From assembly GCA_963741095.1 (NCBI GenBank), contig CAVUGN010000010.1, positions 1-16,544 of the forward strand: DNA of 16,544 nucleotides. The letters are read 5' to 3'. The notes below the pieces were generated by a model. It was not told where the DNA came from, did no database searches, and worked only from the letters and a program-made list of their open reading frames with translations. The position numbers and the translations under genes are program-made. This document shows positions 6,367-16,544 of this stretch, piece by piece; within the stretch, counting starts at the first letter, position 1, and the number at the start of each line of letters is the position of its first letter. This DNA is from an uncultured Candidatus Micrarchaeota archaeon. Its GTDB lineage: Archaea > Micrarchaeota > Micrarchaeia > Micrarchaeales > Micrarchaeaceae.

Positions 6367-7401
6367 GTGGAATTAAGAGAATTGGTTGCTTTAAAAAGCA
6401 ATGACTATGCCAGCATAGCCGAAAGATTCGAGCGCGAAACAGGCGAATCCATTCTAAGCAATAAGAATACAAAAAGATTAGAATTAATAAAAGAACCTTT
6501 GAGCATTGTCCTGCCATCCTACGAAGTGCACGAGCAGTTACCCTTCACTCTGGAATGTCTAAACAAGCAAGTCTATCAAAATTTTGAAGTTCTGATAGTG
6601 GACAACAATTCTAAACCGCCGTTAGAAAAGATAGTCCGAGAACATGAGACTAATTACCCGATCAAATACATCCGGATACCTTATAACATCTCCCAAAACC
6701 CCAATCACACACGGAACATCGGATTGATGTCCTCGGATTCGGACAACATAGTGATGTTAGATTCGGATATGATAGTGCCGCCATATTTTACTGCAAATCT
6801 GGCAATCAAACAACAGTTTACCAAAGACTGCCTATTTGTTGGGTTTAGGGAGAATGTGGATGGCAGAAACAAGGCAAAGGGGTCTGCAGACATCTCAAAG
6901 GACTGGCGGCATACCCTTGATGGCCCATCCCCTAATTTTGTGCACCTCAACATAAACGGAAAGAGGGGCGAACTAAAGGGGAACCTGAGCATTCTTGACA
7001 AAACAGACTGTTTCAAAGATTTTGGTAACGGCAAATCGTTGGCCTACTGAGATCTACCTTCGATGGTTATCGGACATTGCATCGCTTTTAGCAGACAAAG
7101 AGCGATCGAATCGGGCGGATTTCCAGAAATATTCTCCGGATGGGGGATTGACGATATCGCTTTCGGAGCCAATATGATTGCAAACAACCAGTACATTGTT
7201 CCCTCATTAAACACCGTAAACTATCATATTGCACACAGAAATAAAGAAGGCAACAAGAAAAGTCTAGCGGAACTAAAAGCAAACATAAAAAGGTATTTTG
7301 ATTATGCAAATTCAGATTTTTCACCAAGATTTCCAAATTACAAAGTCAAACAATACGATTCAGATTCTTTAAAACAATATCTTTTAGAGGTTGTCGAATG
7401 A
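6367..7401 (+). pseudogene. Family 2 glycosyltransferase interrupted by one in-frame TGA (7048-7050)
   Basis: ORFs 6367..7050 and 7063..7401 are in the same frame (...KSLAY*DLPSMVIGHC...). The N part has IVLPSYE, IVDNNS and the DxD motif LDSD. The C part has GGFPEIFSGWGIDD, the GT-A C-terminal motif. Confidence 0.78.
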
Positions 7402-8326
7402 CGAATAACTTAAACCCAGACGCACTAACTGGCTTGTTGGATAAAAATCCAAAACTAACCTCTCAAAACAGGGAGCGTTTTCGCGAATCAATACGTAAAG
7501 TGACTTCGGAATACATGCAACTGAACGGTATCCTAAGCGTAGTTGTCGGGGGATCGGTTGCAAGGGGAGTAGCAGACAACGAATCGGATATCGAGATGTA
7601 CGTTTATTGCCATAACCAAATACCTTCCCAAAAAGATGTCAAGAAAGTTATGGACAATCTAGGAGCCAGATTGACCCGCTCTCTAAATTTAATCTGGCAT
7701 CATGCGGTATGGGAGCCACACACCTTTTTTGCTATTGATGACGTTTCCTTTGAATTGGGGTACAGGGTATTCCCAAAAGTGGAATCGAAGGTGAGGAGAT
7801 ACCTGACCGGTAAAGACATATACAGCCACCATACGAAAGAAGGCGATACCCCTTTGGACATTACACGAGCGGCATTGCTGCCTGTATCGTGTCATCAAAG
7901 ATTTTGTATGAAGACCGAAGCAAGGCACTGAGCTCTTTCAAAAAGGAATTGGAAAAGTTCCCAAACGAATTAAAGGGAAAGTTGATTGATTACTATTTTA
8001 ACGAAGCGGACAAGATGTTGAAGGCGAAGCTTATCTCCGCATCGCATAGAGATGACGATCTGGCCTTTAATGCACAGTTAGCATCCATAATCAGATCAAT
8101 GAACATCTGTCTATTTGCAATAAATGACACCCATTTCCCCGGAGATAAATGGAACTTCGACAGCATCAAACAATTTAAAATCAAGCCTTCGGGGTACGGA
8201 GCGACCCTAAGAACGGTTTTGGACGAATCAAACGACGGTATCCAAAACAAATTACGAAAATATGCGCTTTTGGAGGGATTACTAAATGAAATAAGCCGGA
8301 TCTCTTCACGAGTGATGGATGAATGA
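7398..8326 (+). pseudogene. Pol-beta-like nucleotidyltransferase with helical C-terminal (DUF4037-like) domain, frameshifted near 7849-7855
   Basis: GGSVARGVADNESDIE fits GS-x10-DxD/E. One extra base in ACCCCTTT joins DT-PFGHYTSGIAACIVSSKILYED to ORF 7889..8326 (LFAINDTHFPGDKW). ATGA overlap with the GT gene. Confidence 0.72.
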
Positions 8327-10893: not shown

Positions 10894-11172
10894 CGTCTAG
10901 GAAAACCGTGAGATCCGCGAATCTAAGATTGGGCAGTGGCATTTTTGTTTGGAAGCCCCGGAAGGTCTGTCGTCGTAAAGCGAGCTTCCCTAACAACGTT
11001 GTATAACGACAAACATGTTGATGAGCGTTGCTTATTGTCATTCAATGTTGAAAATGTGCTAATCTCAATCCATATAACGTTATTTATCCGTAAATTCTTA
11101 GATGAAAACATGAAGATAAGGCGGTTAAGTACTATCATCATGTTGCTTGTATTTGGGGTGTAACATCTAACC

Positions 11173-11203
11173 GAAAGCTTATAATAAACATAACGTTTAT
11201 TAT
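11173..11203 (+). promoter_or_regulatory. TA operon promoter with inverted-repeat operator
   Basis: GAAAG-CTTATA (BRE/TATA) overlapped by perfect 9-bp inverted repeat ATAATAAAC (11181-11189) / GTTTATTAT (11195-11203), ending just before ATG 11210. Confidence 0.65.
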
Positions 11204-11209
11204 TAATAT

Positions 11210-11812
11210 ATGGAGAATCTTAGCAGAACTGTTCTTGCAGCCATTAGGGACTCAAATGCAGGCATTTCCACACTCGATGTGCTTGAGAGCCTAAGGCTAT
11301 GCGATACCTTCACCTTAAAAACCACTCTGAGCAGATTGGGCAAAGCAGGAAAGATTCTACGCCTTAAACGGGGCGTCTACGCAACAAATCCACTCAAGGA
11401 TGCGTTTTCGGCAGCCCAAGCGACATTCAGCGGTTATATCGGGTTCTCTTCCGCCCTATACATCCATAAGCTGATTGCAGAATCGCCATTCTCCATCACT
11501 GTTGTGACAACCGACAAATCTGCATCCAAGGCGTTCGGAGCATATGAGTTCAGGGCCGTAGCGCTTAAAGAAAGGGCCGTGGGGTTCGAAAGCATCGGGA
11601 ATCTGATTGTTTCTACAAAGGCCAAGACGCTCTTCGATTGCACATACCTCGAAAGATACTCGATTGAAAAGGAAAAGATCATCGAAGCATACAATGCAAA
11701 CTCCCTGAGCACCAAAGAATGGAAGGAATTTGATTCCTACGTAACCCGCTTCATTAATACGGGGATGCGATACAAGTTCGATGAGATAAAGAAGAGAATA
11801 ACCAAGAGTTGA
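11210..11812 (+). CDS. Type IV TA antitoxin / transcriptional regulator, AbiEi family
   Basis: N-terminal wHTH (TLSRLGKAGKILRLKRGVY), then YIGFSSALYIHKL and STKAKTLFDC. Directly upstream of an AbiEii-type gene. Confidence 0.85.
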   Translation: MENLSRTVLAAIRDSNAGISTLDVLESLRLCDTFTLKTTLSRLGKAGKILRLKRGVYATNPLKDAFSAAQATFSGYIGFSSALYIHKLIAESPFSITVVTTDKSASKAFGAYEFRAVALKERAVGFESIGNLIVSTKAKTLFDCTYLERYSIEKEKIIEAYNANSLSTKEWKEFDSYVTRFINTGMRYKFDEIKKRITKS

Positions 11813-11818
11813 TGGATA

Positions 11819-12616
11819 ATGGAACTTGACATTGAGGTGTGCAGGACTATCGCAGTACGCTACGGGCTGCCGCTCCAGTTCGTCGTGAAGGAGTTCCACT
11901 TAATGGATGCGGTGGGAATGATTGCCGAGTTTGTTTCCCATAAGCCTGATTCATTGGTATTCAAAGGAGGCACGGCACTCAATAAGGTGTATCTGGAAAA
12001 AATGCAGAGATTCTCCGAAGATGCCGACTTCGACCTTGTGACAAAAGACGCCAAACGGGAACTTCTGAGCTTCTGCAAAGAGCTTGCCGCAAGCATGAAA
12101 GGCTATGAGGTGGCAGAGTTTCGAAAAGTGCGCGACACCATTCAATTTTATTGTGAATATGAAAGCCCTCTTGGCGAGGATCATATCCGAATCGATGTCT
12201 CACCGAAAAAGCTCATTACGGCTATGCCGGTCGCCAACAAAACTGCGGTTTCCGAATTTGCCCACGCATCAGTAAGCGGTCTGATAGTCTATTCGCTCGA
12301 GGACCTTACTGCACGAAAACTTAATGCGCTTGCAACACGCAGCGAAGGAAAAGACCTGTATGACTGCCATGCCGCCCTGCCACTCTGTAGCCCTGCCGTG
12401 CTTAAAAATGCAATCACGCAGATGCTCAAATCTGAGGGTAAAAAGGAAAGCGCATCAGAATTCATGCAAAAAGCGCTTCACGCGCTTAGGAATAGCGATC
12501 CCAAGAAGCTGCGCAACCTGACAAATCCATTCATACCATTCGCCCTGCGCCCCAAAAACTGGGAAGAATTGAAAAACGACCTGCTGATAAAACTCGAGGA
12601 GCTTGGCGTATTCTAA
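11819..12616 (+). CDS. Type IV TA toxin, AbiEii/DUF1814 nucleotidyltransferase
   Basis: FKGGTALNKVY, RFSEDADF and ARKLNALATRSEGKDLYD motifs. Confidence 0.9.
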   Translation: MELDIEVCRTIAVRYGLPLQFVVKEFHLMDAVGMIAEFVSHKPDSLVFKGGTALNKVYLEKMQRFSEDADFDLVTKDAKRELLSFCKELAASMKGYEVAEFRKVRDTIQFYCEYESPLGEDHIRIDVSPKKLITAMPVANKTAVSEFAHASVSGLIVYSLEDLTARKLNALATRSEGKDLYDCHAALPLCSPAVLKNAITQMLKSEGKKESASEFMQKALHALRNSDPKKLRNLTNPFIPFALRPKNWEELKNDLLIKLEELGVF

Positions 12617-12972
12617 GTCATGATTTGATATACTGTCAAGCCTCCTGAGAGAGCGCAATTGAGGCTCATTTAAGCCCTGAGAGGGCTCTAGCTGCCTGGG
12701 TTCTATGCCCTAAGTTGTTGTTCATAGAACTACCACTTACCATTAGGCATGCTAGCTATATAAAAGCCCTCATTGTATTCGGAACCGGCAAGAAACACGC
12801 AAAAGGCAAGAACGGCGAGACTGTCGTCATGCAACTGGACAACAATTGGATTGATTATGTTAGGTTAGTGGTTCAAATTAGATCGGGAGCAGATCGTTAC
12901 GGGGATATAGCTAACAGGAAGAAATGTCCCCTTTTTACTACCATAAATATGAAATGAGGGGATTTATAGCTT

Positions 12973-13019
12973 GCGAGGGCAGGTGGGGCGGTGAGGGGTC
13001 TGGGGTCTGAACTGCCAAA
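12973..13019 (+). repeat. G-rich degenerate direct repeat, copy 1 (contains a four-tract G-quadruplex motif)
   Basis: GCGAGGGC-AGGTGGGGC-GGTGAGGGGTCTGGGGTCTG-AACTGCCAAA shares four blocks, in order, with 15404-15442. Confidence 0.55.
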
Positions 13020-13066
13020 ACACAAGCTTTTTAAGCCTTTTCAGAGATGCTAGGACAGGTGAAACT

Positions 13067-13096
13067 ATGGACGGAGGAGGACAAGGAGGAGGCTAA
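13067..13096 (+). other. Micro-ORF MDGGGQGGG with TATA box and RBS
   Basis: TTTTTAAG at 13028-13035, AGGTGA at 13057-13062, then ATG GAC GGA GGA GGA CAA GGA GGA GGC TAA. Confidence 0.4.
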
Positions 13097-13133
13097 TTCA
13101 AGATAACATATTCAGGATACTCACTACTAATTG

Positions 13134-14570
13134 CTATACGCCCTGCTGCGTTAGCTCTTCTCCTCGGAAGCCTATTTCTGGCCTGACTTTTCTTCGGGTT
13201 CCGTAGTCTATTTTCTCGCTTGGAAGATCCATCGAGTATAACTCTACTAGTTTGTCGTAATGGTGCACCGTGTGCCTGTTATCGAACTTGCGATAACACG
13301 GACGGCCAACAATCACGCCCGATATTAGCGATGTGGTAAGTTTTGCGCTGCTGACTTTTTTCCTGAGCTCTTCCTCCACCTCCTGGAGCATGTTCTCGCC
13401 GTATACAGGCATGACCAGCATCGTGCTGTACGGCGTTTGTATGTCGCCTTCAAGCACGAATTTGTTGGTCTGGTGCGGGGTATCCGCGATTATGTCCAGC
13501 CAAAAATTTGCCCTTTCTTCATCAAATTTGATGTTGTCCATAACTTCCATGAAGATTATGGCATTGTATCGTATTGGCAGGTTGCCCATCGTTATCGTGG
13601 TGCGTTTTATTACGCTCCTGTCAAGAAGCTTGTAATACACATTGTTGGCGGTTTCTGCCCTGAACCCGTGCTTCTCGTCTATATCGGTGAATTTGGCATC
13701 GCCATTTTCGCAAAGGTCTTTTAGGACATCGTATTCTTTGGTGGTCAGCTCCCCTTTTGCGGGCCTAGGCCTGCCTTTTGACCTGTGCCACACCCTCCCT
13801 TTCAAGAGCCCAAAAAATTCGCTTCGTATGGGTACGAAGCCATAATACGGATAGAAAGGCGTTGTGACCCAATGCGAAACGTACTTTTTCAATGGTGTTT
13901 CAGACTTCAGCCGGTATATCAGGTGGTTTAGTTGTTCATTGTCTTCGGCTAGGATGTAAACGAGCACGTCGTATTCGCCTTTGGTCAATGCAACCAGTTG
14001 TATCCGCGGCTCGTTCTCCAAGGACTCTTTGAGCTCTGCAATGGTAGGGAAATCATCGACAAACTTTATGAACGCGATGTAGTCCAGATAACCTAATTTT
14101 TCGGTGTCGATCTCGGCGGTATACTTTATATCGTATCTCTCTTCAATGTTCTTTACTTGATATGAAGTCGCGGTGCTGCTTAATTTGAGCATGCCGCTTA
14201 TGAAATGCGCAGGCGCCCTGCCATTCATGCTGAGCACCCTGAGTATCGTGTGTTCGTATTTGTGTTCGTCTGGTGGCGCCCTTCCTTCTATTCTACTGAC
14301 AGGGGATAATGCCGTTTCTTGTGGTTTCGGTTCGTTTTGGGCTTTTGAAGGTCTTCCCCTCTTGTTGGAGGTAGGTACAAATGTTCCGTCGTCTTTTATT
14401 CGGCCGAGGTACCATGTCTTTGTATGCGGTCTCTTCAATGCCTTATCCCATTTGCTTTTGTAGCCGAACACGCAGAAGCGGTTTTTTAATATTTTTACCT
14501 GTAGCCCGACGCTGCTCCTTGCTTTCATATCCTCGAAAGCCTTTGCCACTTTTCCAGGTAATGCTCGCAT
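13134..14570 (-). CDS. Tandem (double) Lrp/AsnC-family regulator with N-terminal extension
   Basis: HTH1 EHTILRVLSMNGRA...YTAEIDTEKLGY followed by RAM-like LTKGEYDVLVY. HTH2 EYDVLKDLCENGDAKFTDI...YYKLLDRSVIKR followed by a second RAM-like region. About 100-aa basic N-terminal extension. Confidence 0.82.
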   Translation of the reverse strand: MRALPGKVAKAFEDMKARSSVGLQVKILKNRFCVFGYKSKWDKALKRPHTKTWYLGRIKDDGTFVPTSNKRGRPSKAQNEPKPQETALSPVSRIEGRAPPDEHKYEHTILRVLSMNGRAPAHFISGMLKLSSTATSYQVKNIEERYDIKYTAEIDTEKLGYLDYIAFIKFVDDFPTIAELKESLENEPRIQLVALTKGEYDVLVYILAEDNEQLNHLIYRLKSETPLKKYVSHWVTTPFYPYYGFVPIRSEFFGLLKGRVWHRSKGRPRPAKGELTTKEYDVLKDLCENGDAKFTDIDEKHGFRAETANNVYYKLLDRSVIKRTTITMGNLPIRYNAIIFMEVMDNIKFDEERANFWLDIIADTPHQTNKFVLEGDIQTPYSTMLVMPVYGENMLQEVEEELRKKVSSAKLTTSLISGVIVGRPCYRKFDNRHTVHHYDKLVELYSMDLPSEKIDYGTRRKVRPEIGFRGEELTQQGV

Positions 14571-14574
14571 ATGG

Positions 14575-14752
14575 TATAAATTACATATAGAATATATATT
14601 TATTGCTTCCTATGCGACAGATATCTGCATAGGTAATATGGTATATAAAAAGATTGCTCCAACAGATAATTAGTTAAAATATGTATAAATTTAATCTAAA
14701 CTTGTATTATGGCTTAGTTACGGCAGAATTTTATCCAGGTCGATTATATATA
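14575..14752. promoter_or_regulatory. AT-rich divergent promoter region with a near-perfect palindrome
   Basis: CCTATGC[GAC]AGAT/ATCTGCATAGG at 14609-14633. TATA-like boxes on both strands (TTTTTATA on - at about 14644-14651; TTATATA on + at about 14745-14751). Confidence 0.55.
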
Positions 14753-14900
14753 CAACCCTGTTCACAAACATATGTGGGTGGAGAGGATGATTGGGGTGGA
14801 AGTAAGCATTTTTCTAAGGCCAGCGCAGGCTCTGTCCAGAGTCTCACCACATGCTTCCGCGGTACAATCCTCTACCCCTAACGATCAATAGGGTGGTAGA

Positions 14901-15091
14901 ATGGGTGTAAGCGCAAGGATGAGCAGATTTTCTCAGGAAACGACAGGAGCGTTCTAGTGCGGGTGCGCATGGACAGCGTGGAGGGCAAGGCGTACTGCAG
15001 GGAGAGCGAGGTGGGCGGCTACATATCGGAGATGATGAAGCTGTCAGCCGGAAGCATGAGCGTCATGATAGACGCGAATCCAAGAGGTTGA
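14901..15091 (+). CDS. Small hypothetical protein (about 63 aa); needs one extra G just after the ATG
   Basis: GGGTGGT RBS then ATG 14901. The long open frame begins at GGG 14903 (GCKRKDEQIFSGNDRSVLVRVRMDSVEGKAYC...NPRG*). Internal GTG/ATG starts are also possible. Not in the ORF track. Confidence 0.45.
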
Positions 15092-15133
15092 TCCAGTAAC
15101 GTTAAGTGGGTGTAAAGTAAACCGGGTGGAAAA

Positions 15134-15400
15134 TTGACAACAAACAAGCTAGCGCGAGCCAGCGGAAGCGGCAAGAAAGGATTGTGCAGGACCGTATTCC
15201 TGCAGCTGAAAGGCGGGAACGGCGACCTTGCGGAGAGGCTGATGGACATATGGCGCAGGCAGCACATTCCTCTTTACGACCGCAATGGAGACTGCGTGGC
15301 CGAGGTCAGATTCTATAGGGATCGAAGCGAGCTGAAGGATGCAAAAGACCGGGCGTCGCATGGCATCGGCAGGGCCTTCGTATCGATGGTCGAAGGATGA
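15134..15400 (+). CDS. Small hypothetical protein (88 aa)
   Basis: GGGTGG RBS 4 nt before TTG 15134. Codon style resembles the GC-richer genes. No recognisable motif. Confidence 0.6.
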   Translation: MTTNKLARASGSGKKGLCRTVFLQLKGGNGDLAERLMDIWRRQHIPLYDRNGDCVAEVRFYRDRSELKDAKDRASHGIGRAFVSMVEG

Positions 15401-15403
15401 ACG

Positions 15404-15442
15404 GCAAGGGCGTGGTGGGGCAGGGTCTGGATAACTGCCAAA
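15404..15442 (+). repeat. G-rich degenerate direct repeat, copy 2
   Basis: GCAAGGGC-GTGGTGGGGC-AGGGTCTGG-AT-AACTGCCAAA. Confidence 0.55.
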
Positions 15443-15526
15443 TGACGATGCATAACCGAGTATATAAGTATCTCTTAGGGGAAAATAGTGGTATGGTATA
15501 TATGATAAGAAAGATAGGTGGTTTGC

Positions 15527-16544
15527 GTGTATAATATTGCATTGGAGTCCGAAAAAACAGTAAATAACGTTTCAGAAAATGACCGCATTGTACGGGATCA
15601 GCTCATAAAAGACTTACTAAAGTTACCAAACGAAGTTATAATAGATTTAAGAGAATTGCAGGCAGAGAGCGGCTGCTTTAATCAATGTAGTTTTTGCGGT
15701 GTAAATTCAGGCAAATTTGTTTTTAGACTTAATAGAAGTGCTTTAGCCAATCTATTTGCCGGGATAAAATTTGTGTCATTAAAAATTGCTGGTTTGGAAA
15801 GCAATTTATCTGAGGAGGGCGTTCTATCAAGCGACTTTAAAATGCCTAGAGAGGGACTTGTTGGTTATGGGCCTAAGAAACGGCGTGTTGGTACCATTTA
15901 TCCATATGAAGATAATGATATAACCTCTTATCCTTTCGTTGACAGCTACGTAAAATTTGCCATGGAAGATCTGGGTGTAAAAACACGGATAACAACAGTA
16001 GGTTATAGTAGAATGAATAAGGAGCTACAATCTGCTAATGAGAATCTTAACAAAACATATCTAGAAGATATAGAAGCGCTACGTTTTTCCTTTACGCCTT
16101 ATACTTTTGGCTGGACAGATGATAGAAAAGTAACTTCGAGAGTTGATTTTATTCATGATCTAGCAAATACGCTAAAAACATATAAACCGATGGTCGAATA
16201 TCTATTGAATAAAGGCTCTGAAGCATCGCTAGACCTCAGGTTCCGAACATTAGTCATCGGAAATACAAAACTAACGGAGACGATACTATTTAGGAAACAT
16301 ATACTTCAGGTAGGCCCATACCTGCTAATAAGTATTGACGATTATAAACCATTTATAAGATCAAACATAAATGGCAAGATAAGGCATTCAATAAGTGTTG
16401 ATGGAAAACCTAGAAAATATCTCATGCTTGTTTCAGATTCTTTCTCGGAAGATAGTTTTTGGAAAGATCTATCTGAGGATTTGATCCATTCCAATTTTAG
16501 TATAAGAAAAGGTATGGAAAGAGAATTTAAAATGAAAGAAGTTA
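15527..16544 (+). CDS. Radical SAM protein, 3'-truncated by the window edge
   Basis: AGGTGGT RBS, GTG 15527, and an open frame to the window end (at least 339 codons). LQAESGCFNQCSFC gives CxxxCxxC (C50/C54/C57) with the aromatic residue before the last Cys. Absent from the ORF track because no stop falls in the window. Confidence 0.85.
   Translation, partial: MYNIALESEKTVNNVSENDRIVRDQLIKDLLKLPNEVIIDLRELQAESGCFNQCSFCGVNSGKFVFRLNRSALANLFAGIKFVSLKIAGLESNLSEEGVLSSDFKMPREGLVGYGPKKRRVGTIYPYEDNDITSYPFVDSYVKFAMEDLGVKTRITTVGYSRMNKELQSANENLNKTYLEDIEALRFSFTPYTFGWTDDRKVTSRVDFIHDLANTLKTYKPMVEYLLNKGSEASLDLRFRTLVIGNTKLTETILFRKHILQVGPYLLISIDDYKPFIRSNINGKIRHSISVDGKPRKYLMLVSDSFSEDSFWKDLSEDLIHSNFSIRKGMEREFKMKEV

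Follow-up and report, generated by a model that had tools for sequence, protein, structure and literature searches.

The 16,544-nucleotide (nt) window analysed here, which constitutes the whole of contig C10 in the 1.08-Mb, 11-contig genome of an uncultured Candidatus Micrarchaeota archaeon, contains a 2.4-kb module built around a gene for a double Lrp/AsnC-like regulator (double-Lrp), and this module is bracketed by two G-rich direct repeats: copy 1, of 47 nt, at 12973-13019, and copy 2, of 39 nt, at 15404-15442, both read on the plus strand. Comparison with the rest of the genome indicates that the two copies are homologous, that they are probably unique to this locus, and that they coincide with edges common to the whole family of such modules. 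The explanation tentatively preferred, with a little less than an even chance, is that the G-rich segments are attL/attR-like junction repeats left by the event that placed this copy of the module at its present position. Between a recombination site and a regulatory element, the balance leans towards the recombination junction; the main value of the pair lies in showing exactly where the modules of this family end.

Both copies contain the same four blocks, with order and strand unchanged, as an earlier note on this DNA had claimed from its letters, and as direct reading and exact searches confirm: GCnAGGGC (12973-12980 and 15404-15411), GGTGGGGC (12982-12989 and 15414-15421), GGGTCTGG (12996-13003 and 15423-15430), and AACTGCCAAA (13010-13019 and 15433-15442). 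The blocks are matched at 7/8, 8/8, 8/8, and 10/10 positions, respectively, and every indel falls between them, the block spacing differing by 1, 4-5, and approximately 4 nt, or 8 nt overall. In gapped alignment, 34 of 36 aligned columns are identical with three indels, one of which is a 7-nt tandem duplication of GGGGTCT within copy 1. A gapless repeat finder did not list the pair, because the indels break the repeat. Inspection by hand also ruled out a coding frame shared through both copies, since the indels throw the open reading frames (ORFs) out of register; those that start at ATGA overlaps (12954 and 15397) have a common frame in block 1 only, and the glycine-rich look of some frames is a product of G-rich sequence. 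Both junctions are spanned without differences by Logan contigs of public run X1, possibly the source sample of the genome assembly (12984-13613 and 15234-15725).

To assess the significance of this resemblance, the genome was cut into 5398 overlapping chunks and searched on both strands with each copy in turn (a search space of 2.16 Mb), under six scoring schemes; the partner copy was the best non-self match of both queries in all six. Its lead over the runner-up is small (for example, 15.5 v 15.0, 20.75 v 17.25, and 36 v 30); chaining of exact blocks of at least 6 nt gives the partner 26 and the runners-up 22 and 21, while the two regions of 500-600 nt, in plain local alignment, reach a z of only about 2 against shuffles. 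Exact searches find the 10-mer AACTGCCAAA, which is not G-rich, only twice in the genome, both times in the repeat pair, and the two- and three-block combinations at the pair alone. The repeat pair is real, with modest margins and a significance that is not overwhelming; it is judged so because the copies are reciprocal best matches genome-wide that also lie on the same strand and 2.4 kb apart, the score alone being insufficient.

The module lies between the copies with its parts, a D element, the double-Lrp gene, and a U element, in the order and orientation characteristic of the genome's module family. On the left, family-wide homology of the D element starts at 13020 (at about 13017 by profile), and copy 1 ends at 13019. 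On the right, U homology stops at the stop codon of a RAM-like ORF at 15400, or at 15414 in the comparison with the closest locus, C11:45155 (positions elsewhere in the genome are given as contig and coordinate); copy 2 starts 4 nt past that stop codon, at 15404, and its first 11 nt are inside the homology with C11:45155. Since the copies overlap the module edges by 0-4 nt (left) and 0-11 nt (right), the repeats bracket exactly one module, and the discrete unit proposed by the earlier note is borne out, with edges that are those of a 12-copy family. Beyond the edges, the D profile does not reach confidently into block 4 and matches neither copy 2 nor the sequence rightward of it. To the left of copy 1, a DNA profile of the RAM-like ORF finds nothing at E<=10, blastn with a word size of 7 finds no module homology, and semi-global alignment of 12715-12972 with the RAM-like ORF stays at background, its score being reached by 985 of 1500 random genome segments. 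The flanks that follow the U element in the window and at C11:45155 are not significantly similar past 15414, 36 of 500 shuffles reaching their score. Because module remnants were not detected outside the bracket, the repeated piece is only about 40 nt long and has the look of a junction.

The enclosed 2.4 kb is, on sequence comparison, one of 12 paralogous double-Lrp modules in the genome. Its regulator gene (13134-14570, minus strand) encodes 478 amino acids, with a basic N-terminal region and two units that each combine a helix-turn-helix motif with a Lrp/AsnC ligand-binding part, and matches in Pfam and NCBIfam describe a Lrp/AsnC-like protein with a second winged-helix region. The 11 paralogues are 31-38% identical to it, and are located six in a row on C11 (34771-57953), four on C5 (52839-60254, 97908, and 202849), and one on C1 (72779). 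Matches occur in 46 of 60 related genomes, at no more than 41% identity, and none of these 60 offers an orthologous locus at which flanks could be compared. Viral contigs yielded no relative of the protein.

The D element (13020-13096, plus strand) is convergent with the double-Lrp gene and lies downstream of its stop codon. It comprises a promoter-like box, TTTTTAAG (13028-13035), a Shine-Dalgarno sequence, GGTGA (13058-13062), and a micro-ORF encoding MDGGGQGGG* (13067-13096). Ten other sites in the genome match it at 81-89% nucleotide identity, and their micro-ORFs, of 6-13 codons, are glycine-rich and start with M-(D/E/G)-G-G; a fuzzy search with a 20-nt core gave 16 matches, 14 of them carrying a micro-ORF. 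A D element is found at most approximately 250 nt past the stop codon of 11 of the 12 double-Lrp genes, including those at C11 and C5 loci (L033, L034, and L035), and at some loci two or three micro-ORF units stand in tandem. By BLAST, D-like sequence occurs in five of the 60 relatives, directly after a double-Lrp gene in two of them (G035 and G017). The unit could be a gene for a tiny peptide, or the start of an antisense transcript that runs into the regulator gene.

On the other side of the regulator, past an AT-rich divergent intergenic region (14571-14744) that is not conserved among the paralogous loci, lies the U element (14745-15414, plus strand), a conserved small-ORF operon head that is divergent from the double-Lrp gene, on its upstream side; four to eight other loci match it at 80-87% nucleotide identity, and 9 of the 12 double-Lrp genes have U homology upstream. 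It carries a TATA box, TATATATA (14746-14753), a conserved leader of about 110 nt (14793-14905, or 14779-14885 in alignment A3), a second ORF, ORF2 (14957-15091), and the RAM-like ORF (15134-15400, 88 amino acids). Paralogues of the latter adjoin double-Lrp loci, and four close ones are 72-91% identical; comparison with the three closest copies, all on C11, gives a ratio of nonsynonymous to synonymous substitution rates (dN/dS) of 0.10-0.16 at a dS of approximately 0.5, indicating purifying selection. More distant members of this ORF family show weak matches to the Lrp/AsnC ligand-binding domain.

Further observations concern the leader and the ORFs that follow it. The leader is conserved in eight loci irrespective of which ORFs lie downstream, and can form a set of long-range helices (9 + 5 + 5 base pairs) that is kept in 8/8 loci, with several one-sided compatible changes and only two pairs that have changed on both sides (alignment A3); it may represent a structured 5' leader or a short ORF. 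The middle small ORF, ORF2, is intact at C11:45155, where it starts from an ATG that corresponds to 14901; in the window, a missing base near 14921 shifts the frame, which is open only from a GTG at 14957. Other loci carry an ORF for a C2HC zinc finger or a zinc ribbon at the same operon position, and the operon heads are therefore mosaics. The operons on C11 and C5 run on into radical SAM/SPASM genes, a prolyl oligopeptidase gene, and others.

The flanks of the twelve double-Lrp paralogues are 80-89% identical in nucleotides (with a dS of approximately 0.2-0.8 in the RAM-like ORF), and the regulators only 31-38% in protein. This disparity suggests that the flanks either share a much more recent common ancestry than the regulator gene or have been homogenised. 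It points to flanks that, unlike the regulator, evolve in concert or are exchanged. The genes between the repeats (micro-ORF element, double-Lrp gene, and operon head) form the invariant content of the module, and the idea of a cassette that picks up cargo, put forward in the earlier note, is not supported.

If the repeats are junctions, the module (13020 to about 15403) would have come to lie between genes of an AbiE toxin-antitoxin system and an AT-rich, patchily distributed gene. The incoming form would have been a head-to-tail module, circular or tandem, with one copy of a sequence of about 40 nt between its U end and its D end, and recombination with a similar target sequence would have left one repeat copy on each side. 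The resulting arrangement, repeat-segment-repeat, could later allow the repeats to recombine with each other and so delete or amplify the module. An insertion as such is inferred, as are its direction, intermediate, and enzyme, and the data lend no support to mobility at the present day.

The coincidence of both repeats with module edges speaks for this reading. It also fits the compositional break at copy 2, where the earlier note had placed a drop to AT-rich sequence and where GC content indeed falls from 0.55 (15001-15400) to 0.375 (15401-15800), together with the patchy occurrence of the right-hand gene (4 of 200 genomes), which has other DNA upstream of it in the three closest cases. It likewise fits the tandem stack of same-family modules on C11, which begins inside the 3' end of a tRNA-Pro gene (C11:33341-33416); the tandem unit there is 5.2 kb long, with a repeat start at C11:33403. 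A length of 39-47 nt suits junctions of the att type or junctions mediated by homology, and not the target duplications made by transposases. With 2 substitutions in 36 columns, against a dS of approximately 0.5 in the RAM-like ORF, the duplication of the repeat would be younger than the split of the module paralogues, provided that the repeats evolve neutrally.

A number of observations weigh against such an insertion. Pfam searches of the 21 ORFs of the window revealed no recombinase, and in the genome at large, searched for tyrosine recombinases only (PF00589), the sole match is at C9:84861-85361. The enclosed double-Lrp protein is as distant from its paralogues (31-38%) and from the proteins of 60 relatives (at most 41%) as described above, and a donor copy was not found in the sequences searched, namely the genome and the 60 relatives. 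The D and U elements seem to have had a history that differs from that of the gene between them, and the viral contigs contain no double-Lrp relative. Indels placed between perfectly kept blocks would also suit a constrained element with variable spacers, the TATA-like boxes that lie 8 and 17 nt past the copies are equally predicted by a regulatory role, and the statistical margins of the repeat are modest. Finally, empty-site alleles and circular joints, which the earlier note had proposed to look for, were absent from the contigs of four DNA runs from one study, possibly the source sample; with a depth of about 2-6 and gaps in coverage, this carries little weight. No RNA run was listed as carrying the sequence.

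The sister modules offered a comparison within the genome. The 90 nt upstream of each D element were compared with the 2.35 kb beyond the regulator gene at 12 loci (12 rows, with a second D at one locus counted), cross-locus pairs serving as the control. Only the window locus exceeded all of its own cross-locus scores (20.75 against a maximum of 18.2). At none of the other 11 loci did a flank pair do so, in a test of low power for sites shorter than about 15 nt, and this also counts against the recombination reading; the association of the motif with double-Lrp paralogues that the earlier note had anticipated did not materialise, as none of these loci is bracketed. Two other raised scores were due to repeats shared within the C11 island, or were equalled by a cross-locus score, and the same test at 11 loci from relatives was swamped by AT-rich sequence, which produced background scores of 31-57. 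A separate repeat, around CGACGTGGTTCGA, occurs in seven copies of a single orientation in the C11 island only (C11:36358-52395; L033 and L034), several of which precede a D element by 55-85 nt; on C11 it takes the position that the G-rich motif has here, and the two sequences are unrelated.

Further copies of the motif, also predicted by the earlier note, did not come to light in the rest of the genome, among the 60 relatives, where only chance-like matches with one mismatch were seen, or in 247 genomes of the order, 17 of which (including G062) gave single matches with two mismatches; a control with the reversed pattern gave matches in the latter search as well. The best-looking match (G158) falls within an unrelated ORF, with module genes absent to a distance of 1.5 kb, and was rejected. 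Pattern scans of public metagenome and genome contigs, which may omit records of the window's own genome, returned 133 loci with a mean GC content of 62%, mostly from high-GC bacteria, and none had the full motif, or a D element beside it; none is a credible further copy. As regards the proposal of the earlier note as a whole, namely recombination or cassette end sites or a shared regulatory element, the bracket and its adjacency to promoters hold, cargo, recurrence, and association with paralogues do not, and between the two halves the balance leans towards recombination.

The strongest competitor, possible and clearly less probable than the junction, is a locus-specific, G-rich cis element upstream of two plus-strand promoters, those of the micro-ORF and of the right-hand gene (named here the CxxxCxxC gene), which would be bound by the enclosed double-Lrp or another factor, or act as a G-quadruplex or hairpin, and thus place the flanking units under joint control. 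The two copies point the same way, and TATA-like boxes lie 8 nt past copy 1 and 17 nt past copy 2. After each copy, a TATA-like box and a start backed by a ribosome-binding site can be read, as in the earlier note: TTTTTAAG (13028-13035), GGTGA (13058-13062), and ATG (13067) 3' of copy 1, and TATATAAG (15460-15467), TAGGTGG (15515-15521), and GTG (15518 or 15527) 3' of copy 2. The regulator gene lies between the two sites, and the four blocks are conserved with indels confined to the spacers, as would be expected of such an element. The spacing differences given above are hard to accommodate in one rigid protein-DNA complex, and the sequence is unlike the palindromic, AT-centred sites known for the Lrp family. 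The 11 sister loci have no analogous pair, in a test that is weak for short sites; the motif does not occur upstream of homologues of the downstream gene in three other genomes, nor was it found in the 247 genomes of the order; and the start of copy 2 within 4 nt of the last stop codon of the module is left unexplained.

The folding potential of the copies has a bearing on the same proposal. Copy 1 (12977-13005) satisfies the canonical G-quadruplex pattern (four tracts of at least three G, with loops of N1-7), which occurs only 15 times in the genome, and reaches a G4Hunter score of 2.2, in a genome where only 18 positions of the scoring window attain 2.0; copy 2 scores 1.6, with three tracts of at least three G plus one GG. 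A stem of 5-6 base pairs forms at homologous positions of both, with a change from G-U to A-U, which favours a cis element. The GGCAG/CTGCC pairing that the earlier note had assigned to both copies is found in copy 2 (GGCAG/CUGCC); the minimum-energy fold of copy 1 employs GGCGGU/ACUGCC instead. The fold z-scores (-1.6 and -1.9; of 200 shuffles, 14 and 10 fold equally well) are marginal, a point against the regulatory reading, and the opposite strand of the copies gave no fold signal.

An unlikely explanation is that the repeats are a relic of a tandem array, in which units of the form D element, double-Lrp gene, U element, and spacer once stood head to tail, the left unit having since been lost or overwritten, for instance by the arrival of AbiE, so that copy 1 would be a leftover spacer. 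Such arrays are present in the genome, as on C11, with spacers between U and D as short as approximately 110 nt. The first 11 nt of copy 2, being inside the U homology to C11:45155, also give the left end a resemblance to the 3' flank of a U element, and the ORF to the left of copy 1 weakly resembles the RAM-like ORF (BLASTP E of 0.019; hhalign E of 0.035, with a probability of 1.5%). Against this, the sequence to the left of copy 1 is without significant homology to the module by DNA profile, semi-global alignment, or blastn, and the 80-amino-acid ORF there lacks credible homologues in 100 relatives. A relic would furthermore require a deletion ending within a few nt of the spacer edge, and spacer copies with 2 substitutions in 36 are far closer to each other than U elements are across loci.

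Chance resemblance between two G-rich intergenic stretches, for which the small lead over the next-best genome matches, the z of about 2 in the wider regions, and the proneness of G-rich queries to partial matches (such as the 133 unrelated ones in public contigs, mostly of high-GC bacteria) could be cited, is highly improbable for copies that are reciprocal best matches in 2.16 Mb under every scheme and yet lie 2.4 kb apart on the same strand, share exclusively a 10-mer that is not G-rich, and end at independently defined module edges. The probability left over by these four readings belongs to mechanisms not yet thought of.

A bolder extension of the junction reading, speculative and judged quite improbable, is that in Micrarchaeota-like archaea the double-Lrp module forms a mobile regulatory cassette that is self-contained and lacks an integrase: a 2.4-kb unit with a head-to-tail intermediate and a G-quadruplex-prone site of about 40 nt, whose D and U ends would also serve as homology arms that swap anciently diverged regulators between loci, the window holding the sole copy with a readable insertion scar.

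The surroundings of the bracket contain several other features. The left neighbour (12617-12972), which includes the 80-amino-acid ORF (12715-12957), has no detectable module homology. Further left, an AbiEi-like/AbiEii toxin-antitoxin pair (11210-12616) has copies of approximately 65% nucleotide identity in six related genomes, and similar AT-rich 20-mers with an ACGTT core (11068-11087 and 11184-11203) lie upstream of it. In runs X1 and X4, a contig tracks the window as far as 12683 and then departs from it for 77 nt, which resemble 12664-12692; this divergence, just past the AbiEii gene, could reflect a strain variant or a local duplication. At 7398-8326, two adjacent ORFs with weak matches to nucleotidyltransferases (Polbeta/NTP_transf_2) and to DUF4037 together resemble a minimal nucleotidyltransferase system in split or paired form. 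The right neighbour (15460-16544, plus strand) consists of the box TATATAAG and the AT-rich CxxxCxxC gene, which runs off the contig. Of its two candidate GTG starts (15518 and 15527), the second is likelier by comparison with homologues. Neither Pfam nor NCBIfam has a match for the gene, which is without a paralogue in the genome. Among 200 other genomes of the order, only 4 have homologues, which are about 580 amino acids long (82, 69, 62, and 35% identity), and in the three closest, homology begins near the start codon, with neither motif nor module upstream.

Should the repeats prove to be an insertion scar, they would provide the first exact end-points for a double-Lrp module and indicate that it spreads as a discrete unit, which would help to explain near-identical flanks around regulators that are only about one-third identical. 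Should they be a cis element, they would be the first candidate for a site that a single-chain double Lrp binds. The module itself is widespread but undescribed, with 12 copies here and relatives in 46 of 60 related genomes; the reach of the present case is that of one repeat pair in one genome.

Searches of the literature brought up no account of double-Lrp modules from Micrarchaeota, nor of repeats of this kind. Transfer RNA or another known RNA is ruled out as the origin of the motif: ARAGORN detects no tRNA gene in the window, Rfam gives no match at E<=1 over its whole length, and the motif shows no similarity to the 33 tRNAs of the genome, including the C11 tRNA-Pro (the best score, 13.75, is background). 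Target-site duplications of transposons typically comprise some 2-15 exact base pairs and accompany terminal inverted repeats and a transposase. The duplication at the target site of a transposon or insertion sequence was rejected here, the repeat being imperfect and 39-47 nt long, with no end-pairing inverted repeat among the 25 longest pairs and no transposase domain.

Operators of archaeal Lrp/AsnC (feast/famine) regulators, such as those of Ptr2, LrpA, and FL11, are palindromes of 13-15 base pairs with an AT-rich centre. Like the motif of the window, they lie close upstream of the B recognition element (BRE) and TATA box, near the regulator gene and usually several to a locus; the motif differs from them in being 39-47 nt long, G-rich, non-palindromic, and variable in spacing. 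Given these features and the lack of an analogous pair at the 11 other loci, it does not appear to be an operator of this family. Potential G-quadruplex sequences have been described in archaeal genomes (PMC8044849, PMC8896161). Copy 1 would be a canonical one and, by prediction, among the most G-quadruplex-prone sequences of its genome, and copy 2, with three tracts plus GG, falls short of the pattern.

The closest relatives of the bracketed segment are the modules on C11, which have the same composition, a single-chain double Lrp/AsnC regulator divergent from genes for tiny RAM or zinc proteins, and the same combination of diverged regulators and near-identical flanks. The window copy, in contrast, is solitary, lies on another contig and away from a tRNA gene, and is alone in having flanking direct repeats of its own. 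Among mobile elements, the attL and attR sites of elements integrated in archaeal and bacterial genomes, among them cis-mobilizable elements without an integrase (CIMEs), are imperfect direct repeats of tens of nt at the ends of a segment, which in the CIMEs contains no recombinase; a tRNA gene is the usual target, and not an obligatory one. The window shares these repeats and the lack of a recombinase inside them, and its genome also stacks related modules at a tRNA gene. It departs from such elements in that the segment measures only 2.4 kb, the target is not a tRNA gene, no integrase is nearby, the repeat does not recur, and neither an empty site nor a circular form was seen in contigs of low depth. 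By analogy, the structure may be said to work like an integrase-less attL/attR pair, of whose tested features it displays one, the repeats that flank the segment at the edges of its module.

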